The notes beneath the pieces are model-generated. The model had not been told where the DNA came from, searched no databases, and saw nothing but the letters and a program-made list of their open reading frames with translations. DNA of 64,000 nucleotides. Source: Paludibacteraceae bacterium. Its GTDB lineage: Bacteria; Bacteroidota; Bacteroidia; Bacteroidales; Paludibacteraceae. The DNA lies in assembly GCA_031553005.1 (NCBI GenBank), contig JAVBMA010000008.1, positions 78-64,077 on the forward strand, written 5' to 3'. A program made the translations under genes and the position numbers. Of the stretch, positions 3,047 through 57,951 are shown piece by piece. Position 1 is the first letter of the stretch. Every line of letters starts with the position of its first letter.

Positions 3047-3118
3047 GGGAAAATGAGAGGTGAAAAGTGAAAGATGAAAGGGGAGAGGTGAAAGATTAAG
3101 AGGAGAAATTTGGAAAGG
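3047..3118 (+). repeat. GTGAAAG-family heptamer array in the apbE / DUF4290 divergent spacer
   Basis: GGGAAAATGAGAGGTGAAAAGTGAAAGATGAAAGGGGAGAGGTGAAAGATTAAGAGGAGAAATTTGGAAAGG. It shares the 22-nt block GGTGAAAAGTGAAAGATGAAAG with 54277-54298. Confidence 0.8.
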
Positions 3119-3376
3119 TTTGTTGTTTGAGGGGAGATTCCTTGTGAAAATCGTTATCACAAAATAATTTGATGTACTCAAACCAGACTCTGAGTACACC
3201 TAAAATATTTTTTGTTCAACTTCTGGGTGCATTTCAAAAATATATTTTTTCATCAAAAAACATTATGCATATTGCTAAACCTGATTTTTTTCTATCTTTG
3301 TGAGACCAAATCCTTCCGATTAGAAATTTTTACAAACAGAAATTTTCTTTTCGTTTTTATATACCAATACAATTTA

Positions 3377-3979
3377 ATGGAATACAATACGCAGCAAAAA
3401 CGGCTCATATTGCCCGAATATGGCAGAAATATTCAAAATATGGTAGACCACTGCCTTACGATAGAAGACAGGGAAGAACGCGCACGCTGTGCCCAAACAA
3501 TTATTTCTACAATGGGGAATTTATTTCCTCACCTTCGCGATATCAACGATTTCAAACATATCTTGTGGGATCATCTGGCTATTATGTCCGATTTCCGGTT
3601 AGATATTGATTATCCTTACGAGATTATTAAGAAAGAAAACCTGTATACAAAACCGGAGCCTATCCCCTATTCTTCTCCTAAACAGATAAGGTACATGCAC
3701 TACGGCAAAACGTTGCAGCTTTTGCTTGATAAAGCAATGGACTATGAAGAGGGTGAAGAAAAAGAGCAACTGGTCTCTATGATTGCCAATCACATGAAAA
3801 AATGCTTTGCAGGATTCAATAAAGAAGGAATAGACGACCGCAAAATTTTTGACGATATCCGCGAATTTACCAAAGGGAAAATAGATTTGGACGAAACCAC
3901 CATGCAATTGGCAGAAGCTAAAGAGATTGCTCCCAACAAGAATAATTCCAATAAACAAAATAAGAAATCAGGAAGATAA
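3377..3979 (+). CDS. DUF4290 domain-containing protein
   Basis: Starts at internal ATG 3377 (MEYNTQQKRLILPEYGRNIQNMVDHCLTIEDREERARCAQTII...), the recognisable DUF4290 N-terminus. Lies upstream of murA, as is common in Bacteroidales. The upstream part of ORF 3212..3979 is AT-rich leader. Confidence 0.75.
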   Translation: MEYNTQQKRLILPEYGRNIQNMVDHCLTIEDREERARCAQTIISTMGNLFPHLRDINDFKHILWDHLAIMSDFRLDIDYPYEIIKKENLYTKPEPIPYSSPKQIRYMHYGKTLQLLLDKAMDYEEGEEKEQLVSMIANHMKKCFAGFNKEGIDDRKIFDDIREFTKGKIDLDETTMQLAEAKEIAPNKNNSNKQNKKSGR

Positions 3980-3985
3980 TTACTG

Positions 3986-4024
3986 AGGTGAAAGGTGAGA
4001 ATTGAAAGGGGAAAGTTGGAATGA
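3986..4024 (+). repeat. GTGAAAG-family heptamer array, begins 7 nt after the DUF4290 stop
   Basis: GAGGTGAAAGGTGAGAATTGAAAGGGGAAAGTTGGAATG. The 20-nt block TGAAAGGTGAGAATTGAAAG (3989-4008) recurs at 54320-54339. Confidence 0.8.
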
Positions 4025-8821: not shown

Positions 8822-9838
8822 ATGAAAAAGAATCTATTCCTTCCGCTATTATTTACATTGTTACTCTTTTCCTGCAAACAAAACAACACGAAAACAGAAC
8901 AGGTGAAAACCGACCCTCTTCCATCGTGGAATGAAACAGAAAACAAAAAAGCCATTATTGACTTTGTTACGCAAGTAACTTCCGAAGGGAGTTCCGGCTT
9001 CATTCCGGCTGAAGACCGCATTGCAACATTCGACAATGACGGTACGCTTTGGAGCGAACAACCTCTATATTTCGAAATGGTGTATTCGATTGATATCGCG
9101 AAAAAGATAATCGCAGATAAACCTGAATTAGCCAAGAATCCCAAATTACAAGCACTGATAAATAAAAAACAATTCGAAAAAAATCCAGAAGAGGGAATTA
9201 TGGAAGCGTTTATAATTTCGCATTCAGGCGTCTCAACCGGCGAATTTTCGCAAATGGCTACAAACTGGTTAGATACGGCAAAACATAGCCGCTTCAAAGT
9301 AAAATATACCGAGTTGACTTATTTACCAATGGTTGAACTCTTACAATATTTACGCGAAAATGAATTTAAAACCTACATCGTATCGGGAGGCACTTCAGCC
9401 TTTATCCGCCAATTCAGCGACAAACTTTACGGTATTCCTTCGGAACAAGTAATCGGCACAATGCTCAAAAGCAAGTTTGTGGTTAAAGACAATAAATATC
9501 AGATAACTTTCGAACCCGAACTTTGGCACAACGACGATAACGTAGGAAAACCAATCGGTATAGAACAATTCATCGGTAAAAAGCCGGTACTTGCTTTTGG
9601 TAATTCCGATGGAGACCTGCAAATGCTTCAGTGGACTACGACCAATACTTATCCGAATTTGTGCCTTCTTTTGCACCATACTGATGGCGAACGCGAATAT
9701 GCCTACGATAGTCTTTCCCATATTGGAACATTAAAAAATGCCCTGATTGAAGGAGAACAAAAAGAATGGATTATAGTAGATATGAAAAATGACTTTAAAA
9801 CCGTCTTTTCTTTCCCTTCGCCAAGTAATTTGAAATAA
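8822..9838 (+). CDS. HAD-superfamily hydrolase, lipoprotein
   Basis: 338 aa with a lipobox-like LLLFSC, DxDxT motif (FDNDGTLW) and a late GNSDGD motif. Confidence 0.7.
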   Translation: MKKNLFLPLLFTLLLFSCKQNNTKTEQVKTDPLPSWNETENKKAIIDFVTQVTSEGSSGFIPAEDRIATFDNDGTLWSEQPLYFEMVYSIDIAKKIIADKPELAKNPKLQALINKKQFEKNPEEGIMEAFIISHSGVSTGEFSQMATNWLDTAKHSRFKVKYTELTYLPMVELLQYLRENEFKTYIVSGGTSAFIRQFSDKLYGIPSEQVIGTMLKSKFVVKDNKYQITFEPELWHNDDNVGKPIGIEQFIGKKPVLAFGNSDGDLQMLQWTTTNTYPNLCLLLHHTDGEREYAYDSLSHIGTLKNALIEGEQKEWIIVDMKNDFKTVFSFPSPSNLK

Positions 9839-9867: not shown

Positions 9868-9970
9868 AGCACACAGATGACGCAGATTTTACAGATTTAC
9901 ACAGAAAAAATATGGCTTTTAACAATATAAAATCTGTGTAAATCTGTAAAATCTGCGTCATCTGTGTGCT
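9868..9970. repeat. Perfect 37-bp inverted repeat (possible terminator of the HAD gene)
   Basis: 9868-9904 AGCACACAGATGACGCAGATTTTACAGATTTACACAG is the exact reverse complement of 9934-9970. The spacer is 29 nt and the repeat is followed by TTTT. Confidence 0.85.
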
Positions 9971-10139
9971 TTTGACCTACCTTATTTTAGTCTAAAAAGA
10001 ATCTTTATATCAATTTTTTATCTTATTTATAATTAATATCTGTATTTTTTGTGTTTGCTGCCAATCGAAATTCTCACTCAATTCCGGCTATATTAAATTT
10101 AAAATCAAAAAAATAGACCTATCAAAATCCCTATACAAA

Positions 10140-10200
10140 ATACAAATGAGACAAAAAACGTAAATTCAGTGAGAATTTACGTTTTTTGTCTCATTTGTAT
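10140..10200 (-). terminator. Perfect 28-bp stem hairpin, likely terminator of the 10248..10997 gene
   Basis: 10140-10167 ATACAAATGAGACAAAAAACGTAAATTC pairs perfectly with 10173-10200, with a 5-nt loop. A T-run follows on the minus strand. Confidence 0.7.
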
Positions 10201-10247
10201 TCTCCAACCTCTGCCTGATTCCGATGGCACGGATTCAATAAAAGGCT

Positions 10248-12034: not shown

Positions 12035-12166
12035 AGTTTTATAAAGAATTTATTGTCATATTTTTAGTAGACAAGTTAACCAGAATAAGAATGACTTGTT
12101 TGCTCGTTTACTTGTCTACTCGTTTACTAAATTCCAAATTCATCATTAAATCTTATCAATTACTTA
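12035..12166. repeat. R-type repeat, copy 1
   Basis: TTTTATAAAGAATTTATTGTCATATTTTTAGTAGACAAGTT...ACTTGTCTACTCGTTTACT...ATCTTATCAATTACTTA. Direct copy of 14505-14649 except for an inverted core. The right end overlaps the DUF389 stop. Confidence 0.8.
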
Positions 12167-14504: not shown

Positions 14505-14649
14505 TTTTATAAAGAATTTATTGCCATGATTTTAGTAAACAAGTTGACAAGTAAACAAAGTAAACAGGTCATTCTTATTCTGGTTTACTTGTCTACTCGT
14601 TTACTTGTATACTTTTCTAAATACTATATTAAGTCTTATCAACTACTTA
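14505..14649. repeat. R-type repeat, copy 2
   Basis: The left 41 nt match copy 1 at 37/41. ACTTGTCTACTCGTTTACT is identical. The core 14546-14585 is the reverse complement of 12078-12116. Confidence 0.8.
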
Positions 14650-14779
14650 AAAACTTCCAAAAAGAATTTTAAAAAATTCAAATAACGATGCAATTTAAAA
14701 CAAACTCAATTTTGGCACAAAGTATTTATCTTTTTTTTGAAATATTTTTCATTTTGATTGTGCAATAAAAAAAAGGGAT

Positions 14780-14787
14780 TATCTTTG
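14780..14787 (+). promoter_or_regulatory. -7 promoter box (TATCTTTG) for tRNA-Pro
   Basis: Exact TAnnTTTG, 28 nt upstream of the tRNA. Confidence 0.5.
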
Positions 14788-31935: not shown

Positions 31936-31963
31936 TTACTTTTCACCTTTCACCTTTCACCTC
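31936..31963 (-). repeat. GTGAAAG-family heptamer array that starts with the rubrerythrin TGA
   Basis: Minus-sense reads AAGAGG TGA AAGGTGAAAGGTGAAAAGTAA. The stop codon at 31957-31959 is the first TGA of the array. Confidence 0.85.
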
Positions 31964-33272: not shown

Positions 33273-33362
33273 CTTTCCGGATTTCGAAGATTCGCAATTC
33301 ATTTCATATCTCATTACATTTCAAATATTTAAAAAATATTCATTTTGCATTCAACTATACCC

Positions 33363-34502
33363 ATGATAGATTATTCAAAAATACCTTCTCCTTGCTATGT
33401 CGTAGACGAAGTCCGTTTACGCAAAAATTTAGAATTAATCCGCTCTGTAAAAGAACGCTCAGGAGCTGAGATCATTATGGCATTCAAGGCTTTTGCCTTA
33501 TGGAAAGTCTTTCCAATCGTAAAAGAATACATTCCCTGTTCTACGGCAAGCTCGCTTAGCGAAGCCCGATTGGCATTCGAAGAGATGGGAAAACCTGCCC
33601 ATACATACGCTCCGGCATATACTGATAAAGAGTTCCCGGAAATTGCCGGATACAGCAGCCATATTACATTCAACTCACTGAATCAGTTTCATCACTTCCA
33701 ACCTGTCCTGAAAAAACTGAATAAAGATATTTCCTGCGGATTAAGAATAAATCCGGAATTTTCGGATGTCGAAACCGATTTATATAATCCTTGTGCCCCG
33801 GGATCCCGTCTGGGTATTATCTCCGGTTTACTCGGAGAAGCCCTTCCTCAAGGTGTGGAAGGATTACATTTTCATACATTATGCGAATCCTCTGCATCCG
33901 ATCTGGAAAGGACACTGGCTGAGGTTGAATCCAAATTCGGAAAATATTTTCCACAAATCAAATGGATTAACATGGGCGGAGGGCATTTGATGACCCGTAA
34001 GGATTACGATGTCGAACATCTTATCTCTTTATTACGCGCTTTCAAATCCCGCTATCCATGGTTGCAAGTGATATTGGAACCGGGCAGCGCTTTTGCCTGG
34101 CAGACCGGTGAACTGGTGTCAACCGTTACGGATATTGTAGAAAATAAAGGCATCAAAACAGCTATTCTGGATGTTTCCTTTGCATGTCACATGCCCGATT
34201 GCCTCGAAATGCCTTATAAACCTGCAATATTAGGAGCTAAAGACGAAACTGAAGGTAAGCCGACCTACCGCATGGGTGGCAATAGTTGCCTTTCCGGCGA
34301 CTTTTACGGAAACTGGTCTTTCGACAAAGAGCTACAAATAGGCGACCGGATCGTATTTCTTGACATGATACACTATACAATAGTAAAAACAACCATGTTT
34401 AACGGAATATCGCATCCGTCAATTGCCCTTTGGACTAAAGAGGGGAAATTAAAGATGCTGAGGGAATTTGGGTATGAGGATTATAAGATGAGGATGAGCT
34501 GA
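33363..34502 (+). CDS. nspC: Carboxynorspermidine decarboxylase
   Basis: From ATG 33363 (MIDYSKIPSPCYVVDE...). PLP-dependent decarboxylase fold with the NspC-type N-terminus. Confidence 0.85.
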   Translation: MIDYSKIPSPCYVVDEVRLRKNLELIRSVKERSGAEIIMAFKAFALWKVFPIVKEYIPCSTASSLSEARLAFEEMGKPAHTYAPAYTDKEFPEIAGYSSHITFNSLNQFHHFQPVLKKLNKDISCGLRINPEFSDVETDLYNPCAPGSRLGIISGLLGEALPQGVEGLHFHTLCESSASDLERTLAEVESKFGKYFPQIKWINMGGGHLMTRKDYDVEHLISLLRAFKSRYPWLQVILEPGSAFAWQTGELVSTVTDIVENKGIKTAILDVSFACHMPDCLEMPYKPAILGAKDETEGKPTYRMGGNSCLSGDFYGNWSFDKELQIGDRIVFLDMIHYTIVKTTMFNGISHPSIALWTKEGKLKMLREFGYEDYKMRMS

Positions 34503-34523
34503 AAGGTGAAAAGGGAAAGGTTG
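34500..34523 (+). repeat. GTGAAAG-family heptamer array that starts with the nspC TGA
   Basis: GAGC TGA AAGGTGAAAAGGGAAAGGTTG. Confidence 0.8.
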
Positions 34524-34566
34524 TAATTCTTTTTTCAAAACTATTTTGGTGAAAAAGAAAAATAAC

Positions 34567-34574
34567 TATATTTG
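34567..34574 (+). promoter_or_regulatory. -7 promoter box (TATATTTG) for the tRNA-Gly/tRNA-Leu pair
   Basis: 13 nt upstream of tRNA-Gly. Confidence 0.5.
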
Positions 34575-44730: not shown

Positions 44731-44762
44731 ATTGGTTAACTGACTAATTGACTTATTGATGA
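44731..44762. repeat. Short-period stop-rich array next to the oxidoreductase start
   Basis: ATTGGTTAACTGACTAATTGACTTATTGATGA. Confidence 0.55.
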
Positions 44763-44837: not shown

Positions 44838-44863
44838 TTACCTTTCACCTTTCAATTTTCAAC
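44838..44863 (-). repeat. GTGAAAG-family heptamer array containing the MMPL gene stop
   Basis: Minus-sense reads GTTGAAAAT TGA AAGGTGAAAGGTAA. The stop is at 44852-44854. Confidence 0.8.
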
Positions 44864-47800
44864 TAAAATAGAAAAAGGTGACGATCCATTTTCATCTTCC
44901 GGGGCTTCCGGAAAATTCGAAGGGATTAACTCTTTTAATAATGGAAGATCCTCTTTCCGGAAAATGATTGTATGTACCCGGGAAGTAAGTTGTCGGATAT
45001 CCTCCTTATCAGAAGAGGTTATTTTATTCAAAATCAAAACGTCGTATTCCTCTTTCAAAAGGATATCCTTATCCGAAGAAAAACTGATCCGTTCATTTTT
45101 CAAATAACAATTCTCAGCTATGGCTATTGCTTCCGGATTGGAATCGTATCCCGAGACAAGGTTGTTTTTTCCTCTTATCATAAACCAATAGGCGATAAAA
45201 CCGTATCCGCAACCATACACCAATACCCGTTCTTGCTCTTTTATATATGGCTCAAAGATAGCGTACTTACCGGTCTCTTTCAGCTCTTCTCTCAGTAATT
45301 TTTCCACAGCAACTCCCTTATATGCATAATTGCTACGGATTTTCTGAACATCGGAAAGTCCTTTTTTTCCGAAATAAGAATCAGCATGCAGCAAGCCATG
45401 AACTGTAAGAGGGGCCTTTCCGCGCAATGCAGGGCGCTTAATCAGCCAATAGAATAAAAACGGCTGCAATGAATAGGCAATCAGAACGGAGGTAGTCATC
45501 CCGATAAGGGTAGAAATCCCGATGGAAGATATAGCCGGGTGAACGGCAAAGAGCAACGATGCAATCCCGATAATCAATACTATTGCCGAAAAGAATATAG
45601 CAGTTTTATGATATGTCAGCAACTGGTAACGGGTGCGGTAGCCTACTAACAAGCCATCCATAATGAATATGCTGTAATCGACCCCGATACCGAATATAAA
45701 GGTGGAAATGACAATATTTATCAAATTGAACTGTAACCCGAAAATCCCCATAATACCCAGCACAATGTACCAACTCAGCGCCATCGGAAGAAAAGCAAGT
45801 ACAGACAAGAGGAAATTCCGGTAAGAGAGCAGCAGCACAATGAAAACGAAAACGGAAGATATGCCGAGTATCGTATTGAAATCATCGTTCATAATGCGTA
45901 CCATATCTTTGGTGTAGTAAAAAGGATCGATCACGATACTGTTTTTGTCAGCAGATAATATATCGCTTACATCCGCCAAATCCTCTATTCTATGTTGTAC
46001 GGGCGTAAATACGATATATGTACTATCGGTATACTCAATCATATTTGCCAGAATGGCAGAAGGTATCATTCCGGAATCATATATGGAAACGGGGTCATAT
46101 TTTTTATCCAATGCATCAAAAAATGGTTGGAACATCTCTGGACGAAAATTATAAGCTGTTGCCGCATGGGTCAGGTCTTTTTCCACCTGTTCTCTTCTCT
46201 CCTTGCTCCAATAAGCATTCCATCTGCTAATCTTCTTTTGCTGTCCGGACACCGGTATAAAAAGGGAGGATGATTTTGAAAAACCAAGTATCTTCTTTTC
46301 CTGCAGAAGGGTATCCATCAGTTGCATCATCTGCCCGCTATAAACCAATGCCGAATCCAAATCATGAGAAGTAGCAGCAAAATAAGTGGTTACATATCCG
46401 GGAAGCGTATGCGAAGCCAACAGGTCATGTGATTCGGTTACCTTTTTTTCATGATAACCGATATTTTTCAGGTCGGGATCAAACGTAACCCAGCGGGAGG
46501 TATAAAAACAGATTCCGCTCAGGACAACGATCGTTATAATCAGCCATGTCTGTTTTTCCAACGGGTATGAATTGATTTTTTCTAAAAAAGCAAAAGCTTT
46601 ATCCGAGCGTTTATTTTTTTCCGGATTAAAAAAGTGAGGCAGGAAAATTAAGCTAAAGAAGGTGGTTCCCGCTAAAGCCAATGAAGCGAAAATACCGAAA
46701 TCCTTCAGTAAATCGGACTGGGTAAACAGTAATGCCGCAAATGCGCCAATAGTGGTAAGGCAACCTAAAGTAACAGGAACAGCCTGATCTTTCAATACGG
46801 TAACGGGATCGCTCACATATTTGTAATGGGTTAGTACATGCAGGCAATAACTCAGGGCGACACCAAGCACTACCGCTCCGATACCCAACGCTTGCAAAGA
46901 CATACTGCCCTTGATAAAATAAATAATGGTAAGGGAGAAGAAAGCACCGTAAACTACCGGAGCCAATAAATAGATCAGTGATGATTTATTCCGGAAACAA
47001 TAGAGTATGATACCGCAAATAATCAACAACGATACAACAAGCGTTACTACCAGGTCTTTTTTTATCTGCCGGGAATTATATACACTTTGTGCAGGTGCGC
47101 CATGGTAGCTTATTTTTATTTCGGGATGGGAGGTTTGAAAACGGTCAATCTCATCTTCGAGCATCTCGATCAGCTTGATACTCTCTTTGGAGTTGAACGA
47201 TTGGAAATTGGGAGATATAAATGCAATGCCAATAACCGTATCGGGCGTAAAAAAGTATCCGTCTTTTATGATGTAATTCGAGCCGAGCCCATCTTGCATT
47301 GCTCCCATTTTATCAATAAAAATATTGCGGAATGCAACGGGATCGTTCATGATAATATCGCGGAAAGCCATTCCTGCTGGCGATAATAAATTCATATAGT
47401 TATCAGCCATCTGCTTTTCAATATTCTCCTTTGCCAGTATCGAATCCATCTTCACATAATCAATACTGTCGAGAAACAAAGGGATATTTCCATACAGGAA
47501 TCCGATGCTATTACGGATAAAATCGTCTTCTATTTTGTAGAGGGCATCCTCTATCACGCTCTTTTCCTGAGCCGAATCCCTTGCCAAAAGGGAACCGACA
47601 AAGCTATCGCATACAACAGCGAGTTCTTCCGGACGAACGGAACCGGCATCGGAAGCAAAAAGAATAAAGAGCTTGTCTTTTACTTTTAAATTGGCAAAAA
47701 CTACTTTTTCGGAACCTCCCGATTCGGTAGAGGGCAAAAGCTTGGAGATATCTTCTTCATACTCGACCTTCGAACCGAAATAGATAAAAAACAGGCTACT

Positions 47801-47875
47801 GAAAATCAGAATCAGATAAAGCAATACCGGATGTTTCCGGAAAAACTGATATATGTAAATGGTAAATCTGGTCAT
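44852..47875 (-). CDS. MMPL/RND-type exporter fused to a C-terminal class I SAM-dependent methyltransferase-like domain
   Basis: 1007 aa with two blocks of about 6 TM segments and large loops (MMPL topology). The last about 200 aa contain VLVYGCGYG (motif I), GYDSNPEA and YDVLILN. Confidence 0.7.
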   Translation of the reverse strand: MTRFTIYIYQFFRKHPVLLYLILIFSSLFFIYFGSKVEYEEDISKLLPSTESGGSEKVVFANLKVKDKLFILFASDAGSVRPEELAVVCDSFVGSLLARDSAQEKSVIEDALYKIEDDFIRNSIGFLYGNIPLFLDSIDYVKMDSILAKENIEKQMADNYMNLLSPAGMAFRDIIMNDPVAFRNIFIDKMGAMQDGLGSNYIIKDGYFFTPDTVIGIAFISPNFQSFNSKESIKLIEMLEDEIDRFQTSHPEIKISYHGAPAQSVYNSRQIKKDLVVTLVVSLLIICGIILYCFRNKSSLIYLLAPVVYGAFFSLTIIYFIKGSMSLQALGIGAVVLGVALSYCLHVLTHYKYVSDPVTVLKDQAVPVTLGCLTTIGAFAALLFTQSDLLKDFGIFASLALAGTTFFSLIFLPHFFNPEKNKRSDKAFAFLEKINSYPLEKQTWLIITIVVLSGICFYTSRWVTFDPDLKNIGYHEKKVTESHDLLASHTLPGYVTTYFAATSHDLDSALVYSGQMMQLMDTLLQEKKILGFSKSSSLFIPVSGQQKKISRWNAYWSKERREQVEKDLTHAATAYNFRPEMFQPFFDALDKKYDPVSIYDSGMIPSAILANMIEYTDSTYIVFTPVQHRIEDLADVSDILSADKNSIVIDPFYYTKDMVRIMNDDFNTILGISSVFVFIVLLLSYRNFLLSVLAFLPMALSWYIVLGIMGIFGLQFNLINIVISTFIFGIGVDYSIFIMDGLLVGYRTRYQLLTYHKTAIFFSAIVLIIGIASLLFAVHPAISSIGISTLIGMTTSVLIAYSLQPFLFYWLIKRPALRGKAPLTVHGLLHADSYFGKKGLSDVQKIRSNYAYKGVAVEKLLREELKETGKYAIFEPYIKEQERVLVYGCGYGFIAYWFMIRGKNNLVSGYDSNPEAIAIAENCYLKNERISFSSDKDILLKEEYDVLILNKITSSDKEDIRQLTSRVHTIIFRKEDLPLLKELIPSNFPEAPEDENGSSPFSILVEN

Positions 47876-47908
47876 CTTATTTTAATATAAAATTACTTAT
47901 GTTATTAA

Positions 47909-48040
47909 ACTTCGCGTCTTCGCATTTCAAGTGCTTGCGCTTTTCCTTTTTAACGCAAAGACGCGAAGGTCGGAAAGACGCAAAGATTTTTATTTAACGT
48001 AGTAAATTGCAAACTTGACAGCTTGCGATTTCAAGATTAT
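47909..48040. repeat. P-type palindromic repeat
   Basis: CTTCGCGTCTT (47910-47920) / AAGACGCGAAG (47958-47968). It shares CTTCGCATTT and GCTTGCGCTT with 57775-57868. Confidence 0.6.
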
Positions 48041-48044
48041 CTGT

Positions 48045-48120
48045 TTTTCTACCAGGCAATAATGCCTACGGCATATGGCAATAAAAATTCAAAATATTTT
48101 CTACAAATACATAGAAAATA
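48045..48120. repeat. N-type fragment
   Basis: TTTCTACC..ATGCC-TAC-GGCAT..TTTCTACAAATAC. Confidence 0.45.
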
Positions 48121-48238
48121 ATCTATATTTTCTGTTCTCTTGCTAAATCGCAAAAATAAGATTATCCCCTTCCCTTATACAACATTGACAATAAAGCTTT
48201 TCTAAATCAGCTCACATTAACTCAAATCACTCAACCTA

Positions 48239-48272
48239 AACTTTCACTTTTCACTTTTCACTTTTCAACTTC
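48239..48272 (-). repeat. GTGAAAG-family heptamer array containing the dehydratase stop
   Basis: Minus-sense reads GAAGTTGAAAAG TGA AAAGTGAAAAGTGAAAGTT. The stop is at 48258-48260. Confidence 0.85.
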
Positions 48273-48635
48273 AAGCTCTCCCTTTAAATCCACAAAAGAG
48301 ACCGTATTTTCAGGATTAGTAATAGTTGCTTTTATCTTGTATGATTCTTCTCCGGTTTCGGTAATCTGCACACGGACAAAGAGTTCGGAGTTTTGTGCAG
48401 GAATTATTACGGACAAAAATTTGCATTGGGAAATCCGTTTCAATAGTAATTTTTTTCCGGTCTCCTGTTGAACGCACTCCTTGATCATCTGTATATTGCA
48501 AACTCCGGGTGCAACCGGCATATCCGGAAAATGCCCTTTGTAAACTTTATACGAAGGGTTCAGGGCAACTGAGAAAATCACGCTGTTTTCTTCCTCTATT
48601 CTGTCCTGTATGGTAAAATATTCTCCTAAAAGCAT
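48258..48635 (-). CDS. FabZ-like 3-hydroxyacyl-ACP dehydratase (hotdog fold)
   Basis: 125 aa with GHFPDMPVAPGV, the FabZ/FabA active-site motif. Confidence 0.7.
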   Translation of the reverse strand: MLLGEYFTIQDRIEEENSVIFSVALNPSYKVYKGHFPDMPVAPGVCNIQMIKECVQQETGKKLLLKRISQCKFLSVIIPAQNSELFVRVQITETGEESYKIKATITNPENTVSFVDLKGELEVEK

Positions 48636-48689
48636 ATTGAGTAACTGTTTAAAATTTTTATCACAAAATTATTAGATGTCCTCAAGCCG

Positions 48690-48895
48690 GACAAGCTCTT
48701 ACTTTTTTCCAGCAGCTGAAAAAAGTAAGCAAAAAAAGCCGCCGCTGTGGATTCTTCGCTAAAAATCTTCTGCATTACACTAAAACGTTTTAAACTCCTC
48801 CCTACGGTCGTCAGACAAAAAACGTTTTTTAACGCTCCATTCCGAAAATTTTCTTAACGCTTCGCCTCCAAGGCGGATGGAGCAGTAGCACCTTT
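48690..48895. repeat. Q-type cluster of hairpins inside the lipid cluster spacer
   Basis: CTTACTTTTTT..AAAAAAGTAAG (11 bp), CGCCTCCAAGGCG, CTCCAT(T)CCG...CGGATGGAG. Confidence 0.5.
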
Positions 48896-49000
48896 AGCAA
48901 AAATTTTTTATATCAAATTCATCTTAATATAAAATTTAAACAGTTTCCGAATAAAATTTAGAATTGATAGAAAAACGATCTCCGGTTTTCAACTTTCCGT

Positions 49001-49447
49001 TTATACATCCCAACGTTTTTTCCAATTGTCGAAAAAATCGGGATTGGAGATTTCAAAAATGCCGTCTTTCGTCATAAAAAGCTGGATAGAGGTAGCTTTC
49101 AACACAAGCGACTTATCGTTTTTCCGGTAAATAGTATATTCGAAAATAAGTTTTGCCGCCCGGCTGGGCACATAAGCTATCTCGATAATTATAGTATCGC
49201 CTACGGAAACAGGTTGTTTGTATTGAAGGTGCATATCGACAATCGGAGCTACATAGCCGCTGTTAAACATATACATGTATTCCAATCCGAATTTCCGCCC
49301 GAAAGCCTCTCTTGCATCTTCCATATATTTGACATAGTTTCCATGCCAAACCATATTGATAGAGTCAACCTCACTGAAACGGACATCTACCTCGATGCTC
49401 TCTGTCAGTTTTGGGAAGTCAGCCGCATCGCCACCTTGTTTTTTCAT
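49001..49447 (-). CDS. Acyl-CoA/acyl-ACP thioesterase (4HBT, YbgC-like hotdog)
   Basis: 148 aa with VRFSEVDSINMVWHGNYVKYMEDAR, typical of the 4HBT family. Confidence 0.75.
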   Translation of the reverse strand: MKKQGGDAADFPKLTESIEVDVRFSEVDSINMVWHGNYVKYMEDAREAFGRKFGLEYMYMFNSGYVAPIVDMHLQYKQPVSVGDTIIIEIAYVPSRAAKLIFEYTIYRKNDKSLVLKATSIQLFMTKDGIFEISNPDFFDNWKKRWDV

Positions 49448-49472
49448 ACAAAACGTTCATTTACGACAAACC

Positions 49473-49874
49473 TTATTCCTTAATAAATATTTTCATCTGG
49501 CAGGTTGCCACTGTACGGTCGCCCACTTTAGTTTCGGCAGAAAGGAGGCTTATATTCATCACTTCCGACAAAATGCGTATGTGTGTAACCAATTTATCGC
49601 CAACCCCGGGAAGTTCCAATGTCTCATATTTTTTGACTTCGCCGATAAAACCAACCGGAACCGGCTGATTTTTCTGTTTTGCCTTGTAACCGGCAAAAGC
49701 CGATGCAGACTGGGCAATATGCTCAATCAAGCCGGGTTCGGTAAAACGTCCGGACTCGCAAAACAAATTGTCCGGCAAAACGGTCAATCCCGTTACACAA
49801 TTATTTTCCTCCGCACTATACAGCACATCAACCATTATGATCGGCTCTCTCTGGGGAATAAAATCCTTCATCAT
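49473..49874 (-). CDS. Hotdog-fold dehydratase-like protein (ApeI/ApeP-type candidate)
   Basis: Start set at ATG 49874 (MMKDFIPQREP...). The upstream 28 codons of ORF 49473..49958 are read from the stop-free strand of the heptamer array. Confidence 0.5.
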   Translation of the reverse strand: MMKDFIPQREPIIMVDVLYSAEENNCVTGLTVLPDNLFCESGRFTEPGLIEHIAQSASAFAGYKAKQKNQPVPVGFIGEVKKYETLELPGVGDKLVTHIRILSEVMNISLLSAETKVGDRTVATCQMKIFIKE

Positions 49875-49878
49875 TATA

Positions 49879-49981
49879 GGTGAAAATTGAAAGGTGAAAA
49901 CTGAAATAGTTGAAAAGTGAAAAGTGAAAGGTGAAAGCTTTTTTATCTCACCTTTCATCTTTCACTTTTCACCTTTCACCC
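49879..49981. repeat. Inverted pair of GTGAAAG-family arrays between the ACP stop and the dehydratase start
   Basis: Plus-oriented units at 49879-49937 and minus-oriented units at 49947-49981. The ACP TGA (49976-49978) lies inside the second arm. Confidence 0.85.
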
Positions 49982-50221
49982 ATTTAACCTTTGGTAAATA
50001 AAATCGTACAGGCTTTCGAATGTTTGAACGGCTGCGATTTCCTGACCTTTAATTTTTACATTGAATGTATTTTCAATCAGAGCTACCAAATCAACCAAAC
50101 TCAAGCTATCCAGCATTAAAGTGGCTTTTATATTTGCATCGGGAGTAATTTCGGAAACTTCGATTTCAAACTCTTCTGCCAATACTTCATTCACTTGCTC
50201 TATCAATTCTTGCTTTTCCAT
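49976..50221 (-). CDS. Acyl carrier protein
   Basis: 81 aa with the LDSLSLVDLV phosphopantetheine attachment motif. Confidence 0.85.
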   Translation of the reverse strand: MEKQELIEQVNEVLAEEFEIEVSEITPDANIKATLMLDSLSLVDLVALIENTFNVKIKGQEIAAVQTFESLYDFIYQRLNG

Positions 50222-50258
50222 GCGTTGTAAATAATTTCGTTATTAATTATGTGTTTTC

Positions 50259-50293
50259 TTATTTATCTGATTATCTGACCATCTGATTATCTA
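50259..50293 (-). repeat. Period-8 stop-rich array starting with the KS stop codon
   Basis: Minus-sense reads TAG ATAATCA GATGGTCA GATAATCA GATAAATAA. Confidence 0.65.
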
Positions 50294-51514
50294 CTTTATA
50301 TCCTTCACGATCAAGGTGGAGTTTGTCCCTCCGAATCCGAAGGAGTTGGAAAGGAACATATCGAAATTTTTATCCACCCGTTGGGAAGGGATATTAAGTT
50401 TTGCGGAATCTTCGTCCGGATTTTCGAAATTGAGGTTTGGTGCGATAAAACCGTTCTTCATCATCAGCATCGAGTAAATTATCTCGCTAGCTCCCGCCAT
50501 CCACATTTCGTGTCCGGTCATCGATTTGGTCGAAGTTACTTCCGGGTTGTAGTCTCCGAAAACTCCGGAAATGGCTTTTGCCTCATTCTTATCGCCTACC
50601 GGAGTAGAAGTGGCATGTGCATTGATATAGCCGATTTCCTTCAGGTTTATTCCGGCTTCCCTGATTGCCATCTCCAACGAGCGGCTTGGGCCGTCTACGT
50701 TCGGAACGGAAATATGGTCGCCGTTGGATGAGAAACCGTATCCGGTAATTTCAGCCAAGATAGGCGCGCCACGTTTTATTGCCGACTCATAACTTTCGAT
50801 AATTACGGTAGCCGCTCCACCTCCTGGAACCAATCCGTCTCGATCGCGGTCGAACGGGCGGGATGCTTTCGCCGGATCGCTTTCGCGGACGGAAAAAGCG
50901 CTGATACCATCGAAACTACCGATAGAAAACGGATTGACTTCCTGTGCACCGCCACATATAATGCAATCCTGCAATCCCCACTTGATAAGCAACGAACCCA
51001 GCCCGATTGCGTGCGAGCCACTTGCACAGGCTCCGGAAACGGTCAGGTTCATACCTTTCAGTTTAAAGATGCATGCCAGATTCATGGTAACGGTAGAGTT
51101 CATGGACTGGAAAATGGCTCCCGAACCGATGAGGGTCGTGTCCTTTTTCTGGCGCATGATGTCTACGCTATTAACTACGGGATCGGCACTACTGTCATTT
51201 CCATATAATATACCTACTTCGTGGCTTTCCAGATAATCCATATCCAGTTTTGCATTTTTCAATGCTTCGCTGGTTGCTACATAAGCGTATTTACCTTGTT
51301 CGGGCATATATACACGTTGATTGCGGCTTAATACGCCTTTGAGGTCGGGAACTTCTAAAAAAGCGGTTAACGCGGAACGGAATCCCATCTCTTTGCGGGC
51401 AGGGTCAAAAACAATTCCCGACTTGCCTGTATAAAGAGATTCACGTACTTCTTCCATGTTTTTTCCTAAACATGAATAAATTCCCATTCCGGTAATCACA
51501 ACTCGTCTTTCCAT
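50291..51514 (-). CDS. Beta-ketoacyl-ACP synthase (KAS I/II family)
   Basis: 407 aa with active-site Cys (GACASGSHAIG) and His motifs (NAHATSTPVGD, SMTGHEMWMAG). Confidence 0.9.
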   Translation of the reverse strand: MERRVVITGMGIYSCLGKNMEEVRESLYTGKSGIVFDPARKEMGFRSALTAFLEVPDLKGVLSRNQRVYMPEQGKYAYVATSEALKNAKLDMDYLESHEVGILYGNDSSADPVVNSVDIMRQKKDTTLIGSGAIFQSMNSTVTMNLACIFKLKGMNLTVSGACASGSHAIGLGSLLIKWGLQDCIICGGAQEVNPFSIGSFDGISAFSVRESDPAKASRPFDRDRDGLVPGGGAATVIIESYESAIKRGAPILAEITGYGFSSNGDHISVPNVDGPSRSLEMAIREAGINLKEIGYINAHATSTPVGDKNEAKAISGVFGDYNPEVTSTKSMTGHEMWMAGASEIIYSMLMMKNGFIAPNLNFENPDEDSAKLNIPSQRVDKNFDMFLSNSFGFGGTNSTLIVKDIK

Positions 51515-51670: not shown

Positions 51671-51699
51671 TTAACTTTCACCTTTCACTTTTCAACTTC
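51671..51699 (-). repeat. GTGAAAG-family heptamer array, 8 nt after the acyltransferase stop
   Basis: Minus-sense reads GAAGTTGAAAAGTGAAAGGTGAAAGTTAA. Confidence 0.8.
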
Positions 51700-53102: not shown

Positions 53103-53438
53103 AAAAATCCTTTCCTAATTTCTCATTCGTACTATTATGGTTCGGGACAGATAGTATAAAAAGCCGCTCCCGGCTATCTTAAAATTCAAGACTATGAATA
53201 AGTGATAAAACCCGAAAAATAAAATTCTTTTTTGTCTTCTTCTAAAAAATAACTTCGCAAAACTAATATTTTTTTTCAAATCAATTTTAGTCCCATTTTC
53301 CAGAAATAAGGTAATAAAAGCGGATTTGAGAGTAAAAACACCGGGATATCCGGGGTGCAACTTTCTGTCGCGCCCCGGATTGAAATACAAACATTATGAA
53401 AATTTGGAATAAAAATTTGGAATAAAAAAATAAAACAT

Positions 53439-53446
53439 TACCTTTG
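53439..53446 (+). promoter_or_regulatory. -7 promoter box (TACCTTTG) for tRNA-Lys(TTT)
   Basis: 36 nt upstream of the tRNA. Preceded by the direct repeat AAAATTTGGAATAAA x2. Confidence 0.5.
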
Positions 53447-53796: not shown

Positions 53797-54267
53797 TCAC
53801 TTTCCTAAATTCCGTTTCTCCAATTCCAACAATCTCATTTTAACATCCAACCCTCCGGCATAGCCCGTTAGGCTTCCATTCGCGCCCACAACACGATGGC
53901 ATGGGATTAAAATCGGTATCGGATTGCGGTTATTTGCCATCCCGACCGCACGGCAAGCAGCAGGTTTGCCAATTGCCTCTGCTATCTGCTTATAGCTCCG
54001 GGTTTCTCCATAAGGTATCTCCAGCAATGCATTCCAAGTCAATTGCTGAAAAATGGTTCCTTCCAGCCTGAGCGGAACATCAAACAACTGCCGCTTCCCA
54101 TCAAAATATTCTTTCAGTTGCAGATACATTTTTTTTATCAAAGGAGTCTCCTCCTCGACCACGCTTGTCACTCTCTTTTCAAAAAAAGAGATCCCGGTAA
54201 TATATTCCGCATCGGCAAAAACCTGTAACCGCCCTATCGGGGTTTCGTAAAAAAAATAAAACTGCAT
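53797..54267 (-). CDS. ogt: Methylated-DNA--protein-cysteine methyltransferase
   Basis: 156 aa with the IPCHRVV active site. Confidence 0.9.
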   Translation of the reverse strand: MQFYFFYETPIGRLQVFADAEYITGISFFEKRVTSVVEEETPLIKKMYLQLKEYFDGKRQLFDVPLRLEGTIFQQLTWNALLEIPYGETRSYKQIAEAIGKPAACRAVGMANNRNPIPILIPCHRVVGANGSLTGYAGGLDVKMRLLELEKRNLGK

Positions 54268-54269
54268 AA

Positions 54270-54401
54270 GTTGAAAGGTGAAAAGTGAAAGATGAAAGTT
54301 AGAATACTTAGGTAAAAGTTGAAAGGTGAGAATTGAAAGCTGAAAGGTGAAATATTTCTATTTCATCAAAAACTTTCATCTTTCACTTTTCACCTTTCAA
54401 C
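54270..54401. repeat. Perfect 31-bp inverted GTGAAAG-family arrays filling the ndpA-ogt spacer
   Basis: 54270-54300 GTTGAAAGGTGAAAAGTGAAAGATGAAAGTT is the exact reverse complement of 54371-54401. An extra plus-oriented array lies at 54311-54352. Confidence 0.9.
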
Positions 54402-54405
54402 TTAT

Positions 54406-55458
54406 TCAAACTTCATATTCAAAGAAAAGCTTATAATAGTGTAGTCCTTTGCTTTGGTCGAAGCCTTTTTCGATAAAGCGACGGTTTCCGTGAACGTAGA
54501 CATGGAAATTTTTATCCAGCTTCAATACGGACTTAAAGGACTTGTTCTCTTTTTTAACTACATCGGGGGATATTTTGAACTCTTCATTCAAAGAAACATT
54601 ATTCTCTTTTTCGTAGAACTCTTTAAACTGGTTGAATGCATCTACAATATCGGGAGCAGCCAGTACTTCCCTTTCAAATTTATCTTCATCAAAAAGGGTA
54701 TTTTCTTTGAAGTAATTGATAGAACGGTTAAGCATGTCTATTTGCTCCGTACGGGGAACTTCGTTGGCAGGAGAAAAAACATCTTCGACAAATTCTTTAC
54801 AGACATTCAAGTAGTTATGAGTAAAAAAATTATTATCCTGCCGGTCTTCCAATCCCAGGAAATCTTCCTTCCAGAAAAGGGCTTCGTTTTGCTTGCTCAC
54901 TTTATCTATCAAAGAGACTACAAATCCTTTTTCGCGCTCAACGTCAAAAATCAGACATCCTTTGTCCAACTTCCGGATGTTAATGCCTTCTTCATAATTA
55001 ACATCAAACGAATTTTCGCCTGAACAGATTTTCAGGTAAGTCTCCTTATTTTCCGACTTAAAAATACCGAGGCACTTTACTGTCTGGTCAAAAATCTGGA
55101 CTCCGTCAAAAAGAGTAAGGTAAAATTCGCCGGGCTTGATCTGCGGATGGGATGAGTTTTCGTAGAGTGAAGCAGCCAGAATTCGGGAATGTTCGTAAAA
55201 AAGAGACGGATTGTCAAAAATTGCACAAGCAGACTGATAGACAATGTTTCCGGATAATCCTTTGGCTCCGCCTAAATGATAAAGGGATGGTTCGCGGAAA
55301 GAAGCCAGAAAATATTGTTTGAGCAGAAACGGTACAGGGCTTTCCTCTGCCATTTCCACACATTTTTGCGAATAAACATTTTCGGTATTATCGGTACGAC
55401 TGCCAATCTTATGGATCACCAGTTGTTCAATATCGGCATTTATTATATCAAAAAGCAT
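54406..55458 (-). CDS. Nucleoid-associated protein (NdpA/YejK, NA37 family)
   Basis: 350 aa with N-terminal ...QLVIHKIGSR..., typical of the family. Confidence 0.65.
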   Translation of the reverse strand: MLFDIINADIEQLVIHKIGSRTDNTENVYSQKCVEMAEESPVPFLLKQYFLASFREPSLYHLGGAKGLSGNIVYQSACAIFDNPSLFYEHSRILAASLYENSSHPQIKPGEFYLTLFDGVQIFDQTVKCLGIFKSENKETYLKICSGENSFDVNYEEGINIRKLDKGCLIFDVEREKGFVVSLIDKVSKQNEALFWKEDFLGLEDRQDNNFFTHNYLNVCKEFVEDVFSPANEVPRTEQIDMLNRSINYFKENTLFDEDKFEREVLAAPDIVDAFNQFKEFYEKENNVSLNEEFKISPDVVKKENKSFKSVLKLDKNFHVYVHGNRRFIEKGFDQSKGLHYYKLFFEYEV

Positions 55459-55460
55459 GT

Positions 55461-55498
55461 ATTTAGTGGTTAGTGATTAGTTATTAGTGGTTAGTGAC
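55461..55498. repeat. Period-7 array TTAGTGG/TTAGTGA next to the ndpA start
   Basis: ATTTAGTGGTTAGTGATTAGTTATTAGTGGTTAGTGAC. Confidence 0.65.
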
Positions 55499-57890: not shown

Positions 57891-57951
57891 TAATCGGTTA
57901 ATCAGTTGGTCAATTGCCCGATTAGTCAATTAGTCAATTAGTCAATTAATC
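57891..57951 (-). repeat. Period-8 stop-rich array (minus-sense TTGACTAA x3)
   Basis: Plus strand reads ATTAGTCAATTAGTCAATTAGTCAATTAATC, preceded by degenerate units. Confidence 0.7.

Follow-up and report, generated by a model that had tools for sequence, protein, structure and literature searches.

The stop-to-start hairpin between ndpA and ogt of a Paludibacteraceae bacterium as a probable local copy of a dispersed heptamer repeat

In a Paludibacteraceae bacterium, the stop codon of an ndpA-like gene and the initiation codon of an ogt-like gene behind it lie at the two ends of a long inverted repeat, which raises the question of whether this structure is a device dedicated to coupling the translation of both genes or something more generic that happens to sit between them. 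We studied the locus within a 64-kb stretch of DNA that is called the window throughout. Both genes are encoded on its minus strand: the ndpA-like gene (54406-55458) is an open reading frame for a 37-kDa nucleoid-associated protein of 350 aa (PF04245 NA37, E 6.8e-32) with a TGA stop codon at 54406-54408, and the ogt-like gene (53797-54267) encodes a methylated-DNA-protein-cysteine methyltransferase of 156 aa that was recognized from PF01035, PF02870 and its homologues and has an intact PCHR active site. A first-pass annotation made from the sequence had described 54270-54300 and 54371-54401 as reverse complements over 31 of 31 nucleotides within a 138-nt spacer composed almost entirely of arrays, with a third array between the arms, and had read the arrangement as a coupling or attenuation hairpin in which a ribosome at the ndpA stop opens a stem that otherwise buries the ogt start. 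These coordinates are correct, and we found the same spacer length and middle array; the inverted repeat can moreover be extended from its perfect 31/31 core to 38 nt at 97% identity with one mismatch (54263-54300 and 54371-54408).

On the minus-strand mRNA, the purine-rich 5' arm (54371-54408) consists of UGAAUAAGUU, the canonical 26-mer GAAAGGUGAAAAGUGAAAGAUGAAAG and UU and includes the ndpA stop codon, whereas the pyrimidine-rich 3' arm (54263-54300) ends in ...CAACUUAUGCA with the ogt AUG (54265-54267) inside it. The perfect part of the repeat begins 4 nt after the stop codon and ends 2 nt before the ATG. Each arm holds an array of 4-5 heptamer units, and the 70 nt that separate the arms contain a further pyrimidine-rich array of five units (54316-54357, minus strand), which repeats the left arm directly at 83% identity and shows 90% complementarity to the 5' arm; Tandem Repeats Finder (TRF) accordingly reports period-7 repeats at 54268-54352 and 54373-54403. 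Directly 3' of the stem follows a U-rich run, GUUUUAUUUUUUUUAC (54230-54262, minus strand), which codons 3-7 of ogt (F Y F F Y) make up. Read directly from the extended arms, the base of the helix sets the ndpA UGA opposite the ogt AUG, and the third bases of the two codons, A54406 of the UGA and the G of the AUG at 54265, form the sole mismatch of the 38-nt repeat. Perfect pairing at this position would cost one of the two codons, giving UGC in place of UGA or AUU in place of AUG. Arm 1 and the adjoining ndpA side recur in two further assemblies (L001 and L002), which are both 100% identical to the window and may therefore stem from the same strain or reads.

For the minus-strand spacer RNA, the predicted minimum free energy (MFE) lies between -58 and -61 kcal/mol with z-scores from -9.4 to -11.5; none of 200 shuffled sequences folded as well. 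In the unconstrained predicted fold, 91% of the ogt initiation region (-20 to +15) is paired, in agreement with the buried start that the first-pass annotation had proposed. Its second proposal, the opening of the stem by a ribosome at the ndpA stop, is borne out in silico as well: blocking the stop region to +12 nt, which mimics such a ribosome, left the ogt AUG fully unpaired and 87% of positions -10 to +5 unpaired, with a remaining stem of still -46 kcal/mol. In these models, the downstream initiation region is thus sequestered by sequence that a terminating ribosome would occupy, as expected of a coupling element that spans stop and start codon. Pairing of arm 1 with the middle array amounts to a modelled -40 kcal/mol, and in the order of transcription these two would pair first before arm 1 is captured by the perfect 3' arm.

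The sequence that forms the arms is not confined to this spacer. Its unit is the heptamer NNTGAAA, with the 26-mer GAAAGGTGAAAAGTGAAAGATGAAAG as the canonical higher-order form, and a purpose-written scan of the 64-kb window with shuffled controls found 13 arrays of at least three units where 0.07 were expected and 18 arrays of at least two units where 2.6 were expected. All window arrays of at least three units are intergenic or overlap a stop codon. The exact 26-mer is present at three sites, i.e., in both arms and at 49952-49977, and a copy with one mismatch at 3055-3080, where none was expected; this sharing of an exact 26-mer between several loci indicates that the arrays were copied from locus to locus and did not originate independently at each site. 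The one-mismatch copy is part of a heptamer array in a divergent intergenic region (3055-3095, plus strand). Solo purine arrays start 9 nt past the stop of a DUF4290 gene (array 3989-4009, plus strand; gene 3212-3979) and 10 nt past that of an acyltransferase gene (51676-51694, minus strand), carry the stop TGA of a rubrerythrin gene in their first unit (31941-31959, minus strand) or have the stop codon of an MMPL-family gene (44843-44861, minus strand) or of a FabA/ApeI-like gene (48242-48267, four units, minus strand) inside. The first unit of a two-unit array at 34500-34513 (plus strand) likewise is the stop TGA of a decarboxylase gene (33345-34502).

Overall, five of the six solo arrays in the window contain a co-oriented stop codon or adjoin one within about 10 nt, compared to none in the antisense orientation. 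With a TGA in every unit and a period of 7, an array provides stop codons in all three frames. The solo purine arrays show the strongest placement bias of the family yet cannot form a hairpin, so that a hairpin function does not explain how the family is distributed. We discarded conservation of the TGAAA core as proof of selection because the detection rule requires this core and because the units were copied as a fixed 26-mer. The window also contains other short-period arrays, namely TCACTAA units that directly precede the ATG of ndpA and octamer arrays of TGACTAAT, TTATCTGA and GTTTACTT. Ten or more long inverted repeats that belong to other sequence families were found between genes as well. 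Long inverted repeats follow stop codons at a distance of 30 nt (I1), 8 nt (I7), 10 nt (I13) and 47 nt (I8).

A second hairpin of NNTGAAA arrays, to which the 26-mer copy at 49952-49977 belongs, occupies the spacer between an ACP gene and an ApeP-like gene (49878-49985, minus strand). There, the ACP stop TGA lies in the first heptamer and is followed by the purine array (49953-49978), a short loop and two pyrimidine arrays (49881-49936) ahead of the ATG at 49877, so the sense-strand order of purine, pyrimidine and pyrimidine is the same in both window hairpins. This spacer folds at -44.4 kcal/mol (z -6.0) with the distal pyrimidine array and the ATG mostly outside the main stem of the MFE structure, and no U-run follows the hairpin. 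The entire spacer is identical base for base in assembly L140, and no copy-number polymorphism of the arrays was seen among the strain-level copies L001, L002 and L140, which are all identical to the window. Exact look-ups of Ogt and of the 133-aa ApeP-like protein gave no match.

How the ndpA-ogt hairpin may have come about is best seen in relatives, several of which keep ndpA followed by ogt with a spacer of 52, 73, 245 or 389 nt compared to 138 nt in the window. The closest genome relative, a "Prevotellaceae bacterium" MAG with an NdpA that is 94% identical (L003), has a 52-nt spacer with two-unit heptamer arms (MFE -8.9 kcal/mol, z -2.2), and the 73-nt spacer of L134 and L135 has heptamer arms of 3-5 units (-21.1 kcal/mol, z -5.0). 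The window with its three arrays and arms of 4-5 units reaches -58.3 kcal/mol (z -11). In the 245-nt spacer of L131 and L133, we found an unrelated palindrome with arms of ca. 51 nt (-126 kcal/mol, z -20), the outer arm of which overlaps the ndpA stop codon in L131, and the 389-nt spacer of L138 contains a palindrome related to theirs with 45-nt arms (-120 kcal/mol, z -11). A hairpin is therefore present in the ndpA-ogt spacer of every relative examined, with varying sequence and size, and a hairpin just past the ndpA stop recurs while its sequence and size change quickly.

What the relatives do not share is the burial of the ogt start. In L003, L134, L131/L133 and L138, the hairpin spares the ogt AUG together with 12 nt or more of its leader, and only in the window does the start fall within the stem; occlusion of the start, which a conserved coupling element would show across orthologous operons, is thus absent from these relatives. 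L003 and L134 have the 3' arm and the free A-rich leader in common (...TTTTCAACTCTCAACTAAATAAAA(A)ATG), of which the leader, CAACTAAATAAAA(A)ATG, places 12-14 nt of A-rich sequence and the AUG outside the hairpin. The Ogt N-terminus is FY-rich in all cases but reads MQFYFFYE in the window, with one extra residue, versus MFYYFYE in relatives. This difference fits an ancestral ogt ATG that would have been overwritten by the end of the repeat, where the sequence is now CAG, and replaced by a new ATG one codon upstream. NNTGAAA arrays of at least two units are absent from L003 to L010 except for one two-unit run in L008 (5.4-9.0 kb each for L003 to L009).

The spacer on the other side of ndpA, between a HAD gene and ndpA, carries a second heptamer family. 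In the window, it is represented by a solo pyrimidine array with the units TCACTAA, CCACTAA, TAACTAA, TCACTAA and CCACTAA (55463-55497, minus strand) that ends 4 nt before the ndpA ATG. In L131, 7 and 4 units of the same GTGATTA/TCACTAA family make up a hairpin (-43.9 kcal/mol), the HAD-ndpA spacer of L003 has a 15-bp hairpin (-25.6 kcal/mol), and that of L133 has none; the GTGATTA/TCACTAA hairpins of relatives are positioned after the HAD stop codon.

Heptamer simple repeats of bacteria have been known since the STRRs of cyanobacteria were described, and their function is a matter of proposals so far. To our knowledge, the units of STRR1-3 are not NNTGAAA. A functional analogue is found in the REP/BIME elements of enterobacteria, dispersed extragenic palindromes after stop codons and in operon spacers that stabilize mRNA 3' ends and influence how strongly the adjacent cistrons are expressed. 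A REP is one imperfect palindrome of ca. 35 nt that has a conserved head and is mobilized by a RAYT transposase, unlike the arms of the ndpA-ogt spacer, which are tandem heptamers. Closer to our case, STRR heptamers form hairpins between hupS and hupL of Nostoc and Anabaena for which transcript stabilization or translational coupling has been proposed (PMC2670836). Like NNTGAAA, STRRs are dispersed intergenic 7-nt tandem units of which inverted arrays create a hairpin in an operon spacer, though in another phylum and with another unit, and in the ndpA-ogt spacer the stem reaches from stop to start codon.

The GGGAATC repeats of Xanthomonas and GGGGAYT repeats of Nostoc mostly comprise around four units with a conserved core and variable positions (Rehm et al. 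2015, PMC4692102). They lie between co-oriented ORFs, where those on the sense strand overlap a stop codon or are no more than 50 bp away from it and those on the antisense strand immediately precede an ORF; inverted arrangements were noted, and transcript starts or stops were more frequent at these repeats than at controls (PMC4692102). The arrays in the window are placed in the same manner, i.e., sense strand, at or near the stop and between co-oriented ORFs, but the repeats of Rehm et al. are G-rich with proposed G-quadruplexes, whereas NNTGAAA is A-rich, allows no G-quadruplex and has a TGA in every unit. TAACTGA direct repeats have been described in Beggiatoaceae, Cyanobacteria and five Bacteroidetes including Paludibacter (MacGregor 2015, PMC4679880). 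Their arrays provide a stop in each of the three frames and in some cases extend over the stop codon of the upstream gene, and they were proposed to act post-transcriptionally, but most sets lie directly upstream of start codons and only 1 of 170 is inverted (PMC4679880); NNTGAAA arrays, in contrast, are mostly found at stop codons and as inverted pairs twice in the window. It is rather the TCACTAA/TAACTAA array before the ndpA ATG that resembles the TAACTGA class in position.

With their tandem units, dispersal across the 64-kb window and placement, the NNTGAAA arrays belong to the class of heptanucleotide intergenic simple-sequence repeats. NNTGAAA is no rotation or complement of TAACTGA or GGGAATC, and Rfam 15 at gathering threshold recognized only five tRNAs in the window and no family at the spacer. 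A permissive search merely added sub-threshold generic hairpin matches (plant miRNA precursors and NsiR8), of which those resembling miRNA precursors arise because any long hairpin gives them. The difference to the named families and the absence of an Rfam match make NNTGAAA a separate family within the known heptamer class.

Beyond this genome, a metagenome scan for four TGAAA-core units returned at least 120 loci with a GC content of 29-69%, and a separate scan of viral contigs found such arrays as well. Among the matches listed, both scans show TGAAA-type heptamer arrays to be ubiquitous in metagenomes and viral contigs, which is a statement on their occurrence and not on their enrichment. 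Solo intergenic arrays in the metagenome matches listed are associated with a co-oriented stop codon in 35 cases versus an antisense one in 7, or in 15 versus 7 if the stop lies outside the array. Inverted pairs account for 9 of the 120 metagenome loci listed. In most cases, such a pair adjoins the stop codon of a long ORF, and frequently it does so on either strand because it is flanked by convergent genes; translational coupling can consequently not be the general role of such hairpins.

As far as the comparison of sequences goes, the ndpA-ogt hairpin is best described as one local copy of a dispersed heptamer repeat and not as a conserved, purpose-built switch. We consider it fairly probable that a lineage-specific repeat expansion created a stem that throttles ogt and protects the 3' end of ndpA as a tolerated by-product and not as a conserved regulator. 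Three copies of the dispersed NNTGAAA repeat in the order purine, pyrimidine, pyrimidine would have filled the spacer when a much smaller heptamer hairpin, as seen at this site in sister genomes, expanded and in part was duplicated locally in inverted orientation. This expansion would have overwritten the ancestral A-rich ogt leader and shifted the ogt start upstream by one codon, and the single mismatch of the repeat is what leaves UGA as well as AUG intact. A hairpin is nevertheless found in every relative examined, so the structure itself could be selected, and the term "by-product" may understate its function.

The Bacteroidetes promoter motif TAnnTTTG does not occur in the ndpA-ogt spacer, while the full motif finds three tRNA promoters in the window. 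We did detect -7 motifs upstream of the HAD gene and a lone -7-like motif inside ndpA at 54682 that comes without a properly spaced -33 element. With no promoter in the spacer, every ogt mRNA must include the 3' arm and in all likelihood the hairpin in full. The ndpA and ogt genes are probably co-transcribed, and the hairpin would fold in vivo and affect the level of Ogt. On a HAD-ndpA-ogt transcript, the stem of ca. 38 bp (-58 kcal/mol) would bury the ogt start, and a ribosome on the ndpA stop would melt the base of the helix. By analogy to the STRR hairpin between hupS and hupL and to REP/BIME elements, the stem may block 3'-to-5' decay and thereby protect ndpA mRNA. Independent initiation at ogt would be strongly lowered, possibly along with read-through, and the remaining Ogt synthesis would depend on ribosomes that finish ndpA.

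The same structure could instead act as an intrinsic terminator or attenuator within the operon, with the stem and UUUUAUUUUUUUU ending most transcripts at ogt codons 3-7 and ogt being expressed only by read-through, which we regard as unlikely. The U-run indeed begins only 1-2 nt past the extended stem, long hairpins shortly after stop codons (8-47 nt, in four cases 30 nt or less) are common in the window, array hairpins adjoin the stop codons of convergent genes among the metagenome matches listed, and the excess of transcript starts and stops at heptamer repeats over controls points in the same direction (Rehm et al., PMC4692102). Yet canonical terminators do not have an AU-rich stem, a loop of 70 nt and a middle arm that competes for pairing, as is the case here, and a sigma-70/terminator consensus scan of the minus strand gave nothing meaningful at the ndpA-ogt spacer. 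The hairpin in the ACP spacer lacks a U-run, and the stems of relatives are followed by A-rich, not U-rich, sequence. We rejected the U-run as evidence for an evolved terminator tail because it simply encodes the FY-rich N-terminus of Ogt that is conserved in relatives.

Judged by sequence, the role as an intra-operon stabilizer or terminator that the first-pass annotation had named as its fallback would still fit the family-wide placement at stop codons better than a coupling device does. Of its main proposal, the geometry holds up in folding, but the idea of a dedicated element finds no support in the comparison, given the dispersed arms, the free AUG of relatives and the array hairpins between convergent genes. 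We therefore see only a small chance that a dedicated translational-coupling device was selected here, one that would silence ogt as long as ribosomes do not reach the ndpA stop and thereby fix the NdpA:Ogt ratio. Such a device would account for a stop codon that faces the start codon at the base of the helix, for an AUG that is freed only when the modelled ribosome covers the stop and for a single mismatch that retains UGA and AUG alike. The same layout of stop, array, array and start in the spacer between the ACP and ApeP-like genes would support it, as would the coupling proposed for STRR hairpins in hupS-hupL (PMC2670836). Against it stand the occlusion of the start in the window genome only, as opposed to a free leader and AUG in L003, L134, L131 and L138, and arms that are generic copies of the family. 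Even the ACP example leaves the AUG and the distal pyrimidine array largely outside the main stem of its MFE structure, and array hairpins elsewhere lie between convergent genes among the metagenome matches listed.

No better a chance do we give to the opposite view of a neutral or selfish repeat without effect on expression that arises by slippage and template switching and is tolerated in spacers, with a stem that is irrelevant in vivo. The arrays are lineage-specific with fast turnover, identical copies are common to several loci, and TGAAA-type arrays are ubiquitous across metagenomes (GC 29-69%) and viral contigs among the matches listed, all as expected for such a repeat. Heptamers are also the commonest class of long simple-sequence repeats in bacteria, as Mrazek 2007 is cited in PMC4679880. 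Strong biases in orientation and toward stop codons, however, argue against neutrality, and so does the mismatch, which retains both UGA and AUG and thus points to selection on the sequence of the ndpA-ogt spacer. The Bacteroidetes phylum relies on unstructured A-rich leaders, and in the light of this general knowledge, a start codon covered by a stem of -58 kcal/mol would hardly remain without effect.

Improbable, too, is that the arrays are periodic binding sites for a protein, be it S1, a Csp, an RRM protein or a DNA-binding protein, and the hairpin is secondary. This would be in line with the unstructured solo purine arrays in sense orientation at stop codons, with the same proposal for TAACTGA repeats (PMC4679880) and with a near-invariant TGAAA core next to two variable flanking positions, a count that is biased by the detection rule. 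The variation between units, though, is part of a fixed higher-order copy of 21-26 nt and hence no proof of constraint, different heptamer families occupy equivalent positions, and no candidate protein was identified.

We give little credence to the idea that inverted NNTGAAA arrays are a termination-reinitiation platform on which ribosomes are shunted across the base of the helix to the next AUG. If this were true, the downstream AUG would be reached without scanning the 138-nt spacer, and NNTGAAA arrays might be a widespread, unrecognized functional "post-stop" RNA element. Its grounds are the two spacers with a purine-pyrimidine-pyrimidine layout, the mismatch that preserves both codons and the preference of arrays for sense-strand stops across very different genomes among the metagenome matches listed.

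Very improbable, finally, are a DNA-level switch, for which one could cite the 38-bp inverted repeats around a 70-bp segment in an order, the Bacteroidales, that is rich in invertons, and an assembly artefact, for which one could cite the origin of the window from a MAG and the break of short-k Logan contigs inside arm 1: we rejected the former because the 70-bp segment (54301-54370) has no TAnnTTTG promoter in either orientation, and against the latter speak the arm 1 junction in two other assemblies, the whole second hairpin in L140, smaller versions of the hairpin at the same site in other genomes and the fact that a Logan break is expected at a 38-nt inverted repeat for an assumed graph k of 31.

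The local expansion of a dispersed repeat, which we favor, has consequences for annotation as well as for biology. The pyrimidine-rich strand of the arrays is free of stop codons, so gene callers extend ORFs through them, as seen for the ApeP-like protein of 133 aa, which was called with 161 aa, and for NdpA, which was called with 381 aa although it has 350, and short-k assemblies break at heptamer arrays. For the biology of this group, the locus offers a natural test case, since the 38-bp stem of the window buries the ogt start while the heptamer hairpins of 2-3 units in its sisters leave the start free in the same operon context. Comparing the expression of Ogt and NdpA between them could tell transcript stabilization, termination and translational coupling apart.

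Repeats of period 7 and period 8 are generally abundant in the genome that the window comes from. Nearly all intercistronic spacers of an aryl-polyene-type lipid cluster on the minus strand (44852-51514; ketoacyl synthase, ACP, ApeP-like protein, 4HBT thioesterase, FabA/ApeI-like dehydratase and MMPL transporter) hold heptamer or octamer arrays, and octamer tandem arrays lie at 12094-12128, 14534-14614, 44737-44759, 50263-50292 and 57909-57948. One octamer, TGACTAAT, occurs at two sites in the window in opposite orientations, the array of another, TTATCTGA, starts where the ketoacyl-synthase gene has its stop codon, and an inverted pair is found among the octamers GTTTACTT and ACTCGTTT (14534-14605). 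We also note that a gene ends at 9838 and that its stop codon is followed, after 30 nt, by a perfect 38-nt inverted repeat made of ACAGATTT-like short repeats (9868-9905 / 9933-9970, with a loop of 27 nt); close to this repeat lies a separate perfect palindrome of 29 nt (10139-10201).

The spacer between the HAD gene and ndpA carries a second heptamer family, GTGATTA / TCACTAA (55463-55497 on the minus strand of the window; 1572-1675, 3933-3970 and 1-52 in the related loci L131, L003 and L138, respectively). Its representative in the window is a pyrimidine array of five units, with 4 nt separating its end from the ndpA ATG. In relatives, hairpins of this family lie directly 3' of the HAD stop codon: L131 has one of 7+4 units and L003 one of 15 bp, and L133 has none. 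In other termite-gut-type Bacteroidales, the ndpA-ogt spacer hosts a palindromic, MITE-like element of ca. 200 nt (L131 2745-2950, L133 1121-1330 and L138 1165-1360) with perfect arms of 45 to 51 nt containing …AACAAAACAACCT[C/A]AGTA… and with inverted octamer arrays inside (ACCTCATT / AATGAGGT). The outer arm of this palindrome overlaps the ndpA stop codon in L131.

Because the pyrimidine-rich strand of the arrays is free of stop codons, gene callers run ORFs on through them and over-extend the predicted proteins. The ApeP-like ORF (49473-49958, minus strand) was thus called at 161 aa, whereas homology starts only at the ATG at 49877, which gives a protein of 133 aa, and the NdpA ORF of L131 (1610-2755) was predicted to encode 381 aa rather than 350 aa. 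Heptamer arrays also break up short-read assemblies: the Logan contigs L001 and L002, both identical to the window, end at the same base (3428 and 1773, respectively) inside the purine-rich arm at the ndpA stop codon, 25 nt past that codon. Such a shared break would be expected for a short-k de Bruijn graph at a 38-nt inverted repeat, given an assembler k that we assume to be about 31.

Full matches to the Bacteroidetes promoter consensus (TTTG-N17-23-TAnnTTTG) lie on the plus strand 30 to 40 nt upstream of three tRNA genes (14753-14787, 34545-34574 and 53416-53446), which shows that the organism uses the promoter type of its phylum. A 13-mer in 2.3 copies (53399-53428) overlaps the third match.

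TGAAA-core heptamer arrays of at least four units are very widespread, with at least 120 metagenome loci (L011-L130), which span a GC content of 29% to 69%, and at least 120 viral stretches (L141-L220 listed); giant-virus MAGs are among the matches listed. Among these listed matches, inverted array pairs often lie between convergent genes with each stop codon at a purine arm (L040, L044, L046, L055 and L094).
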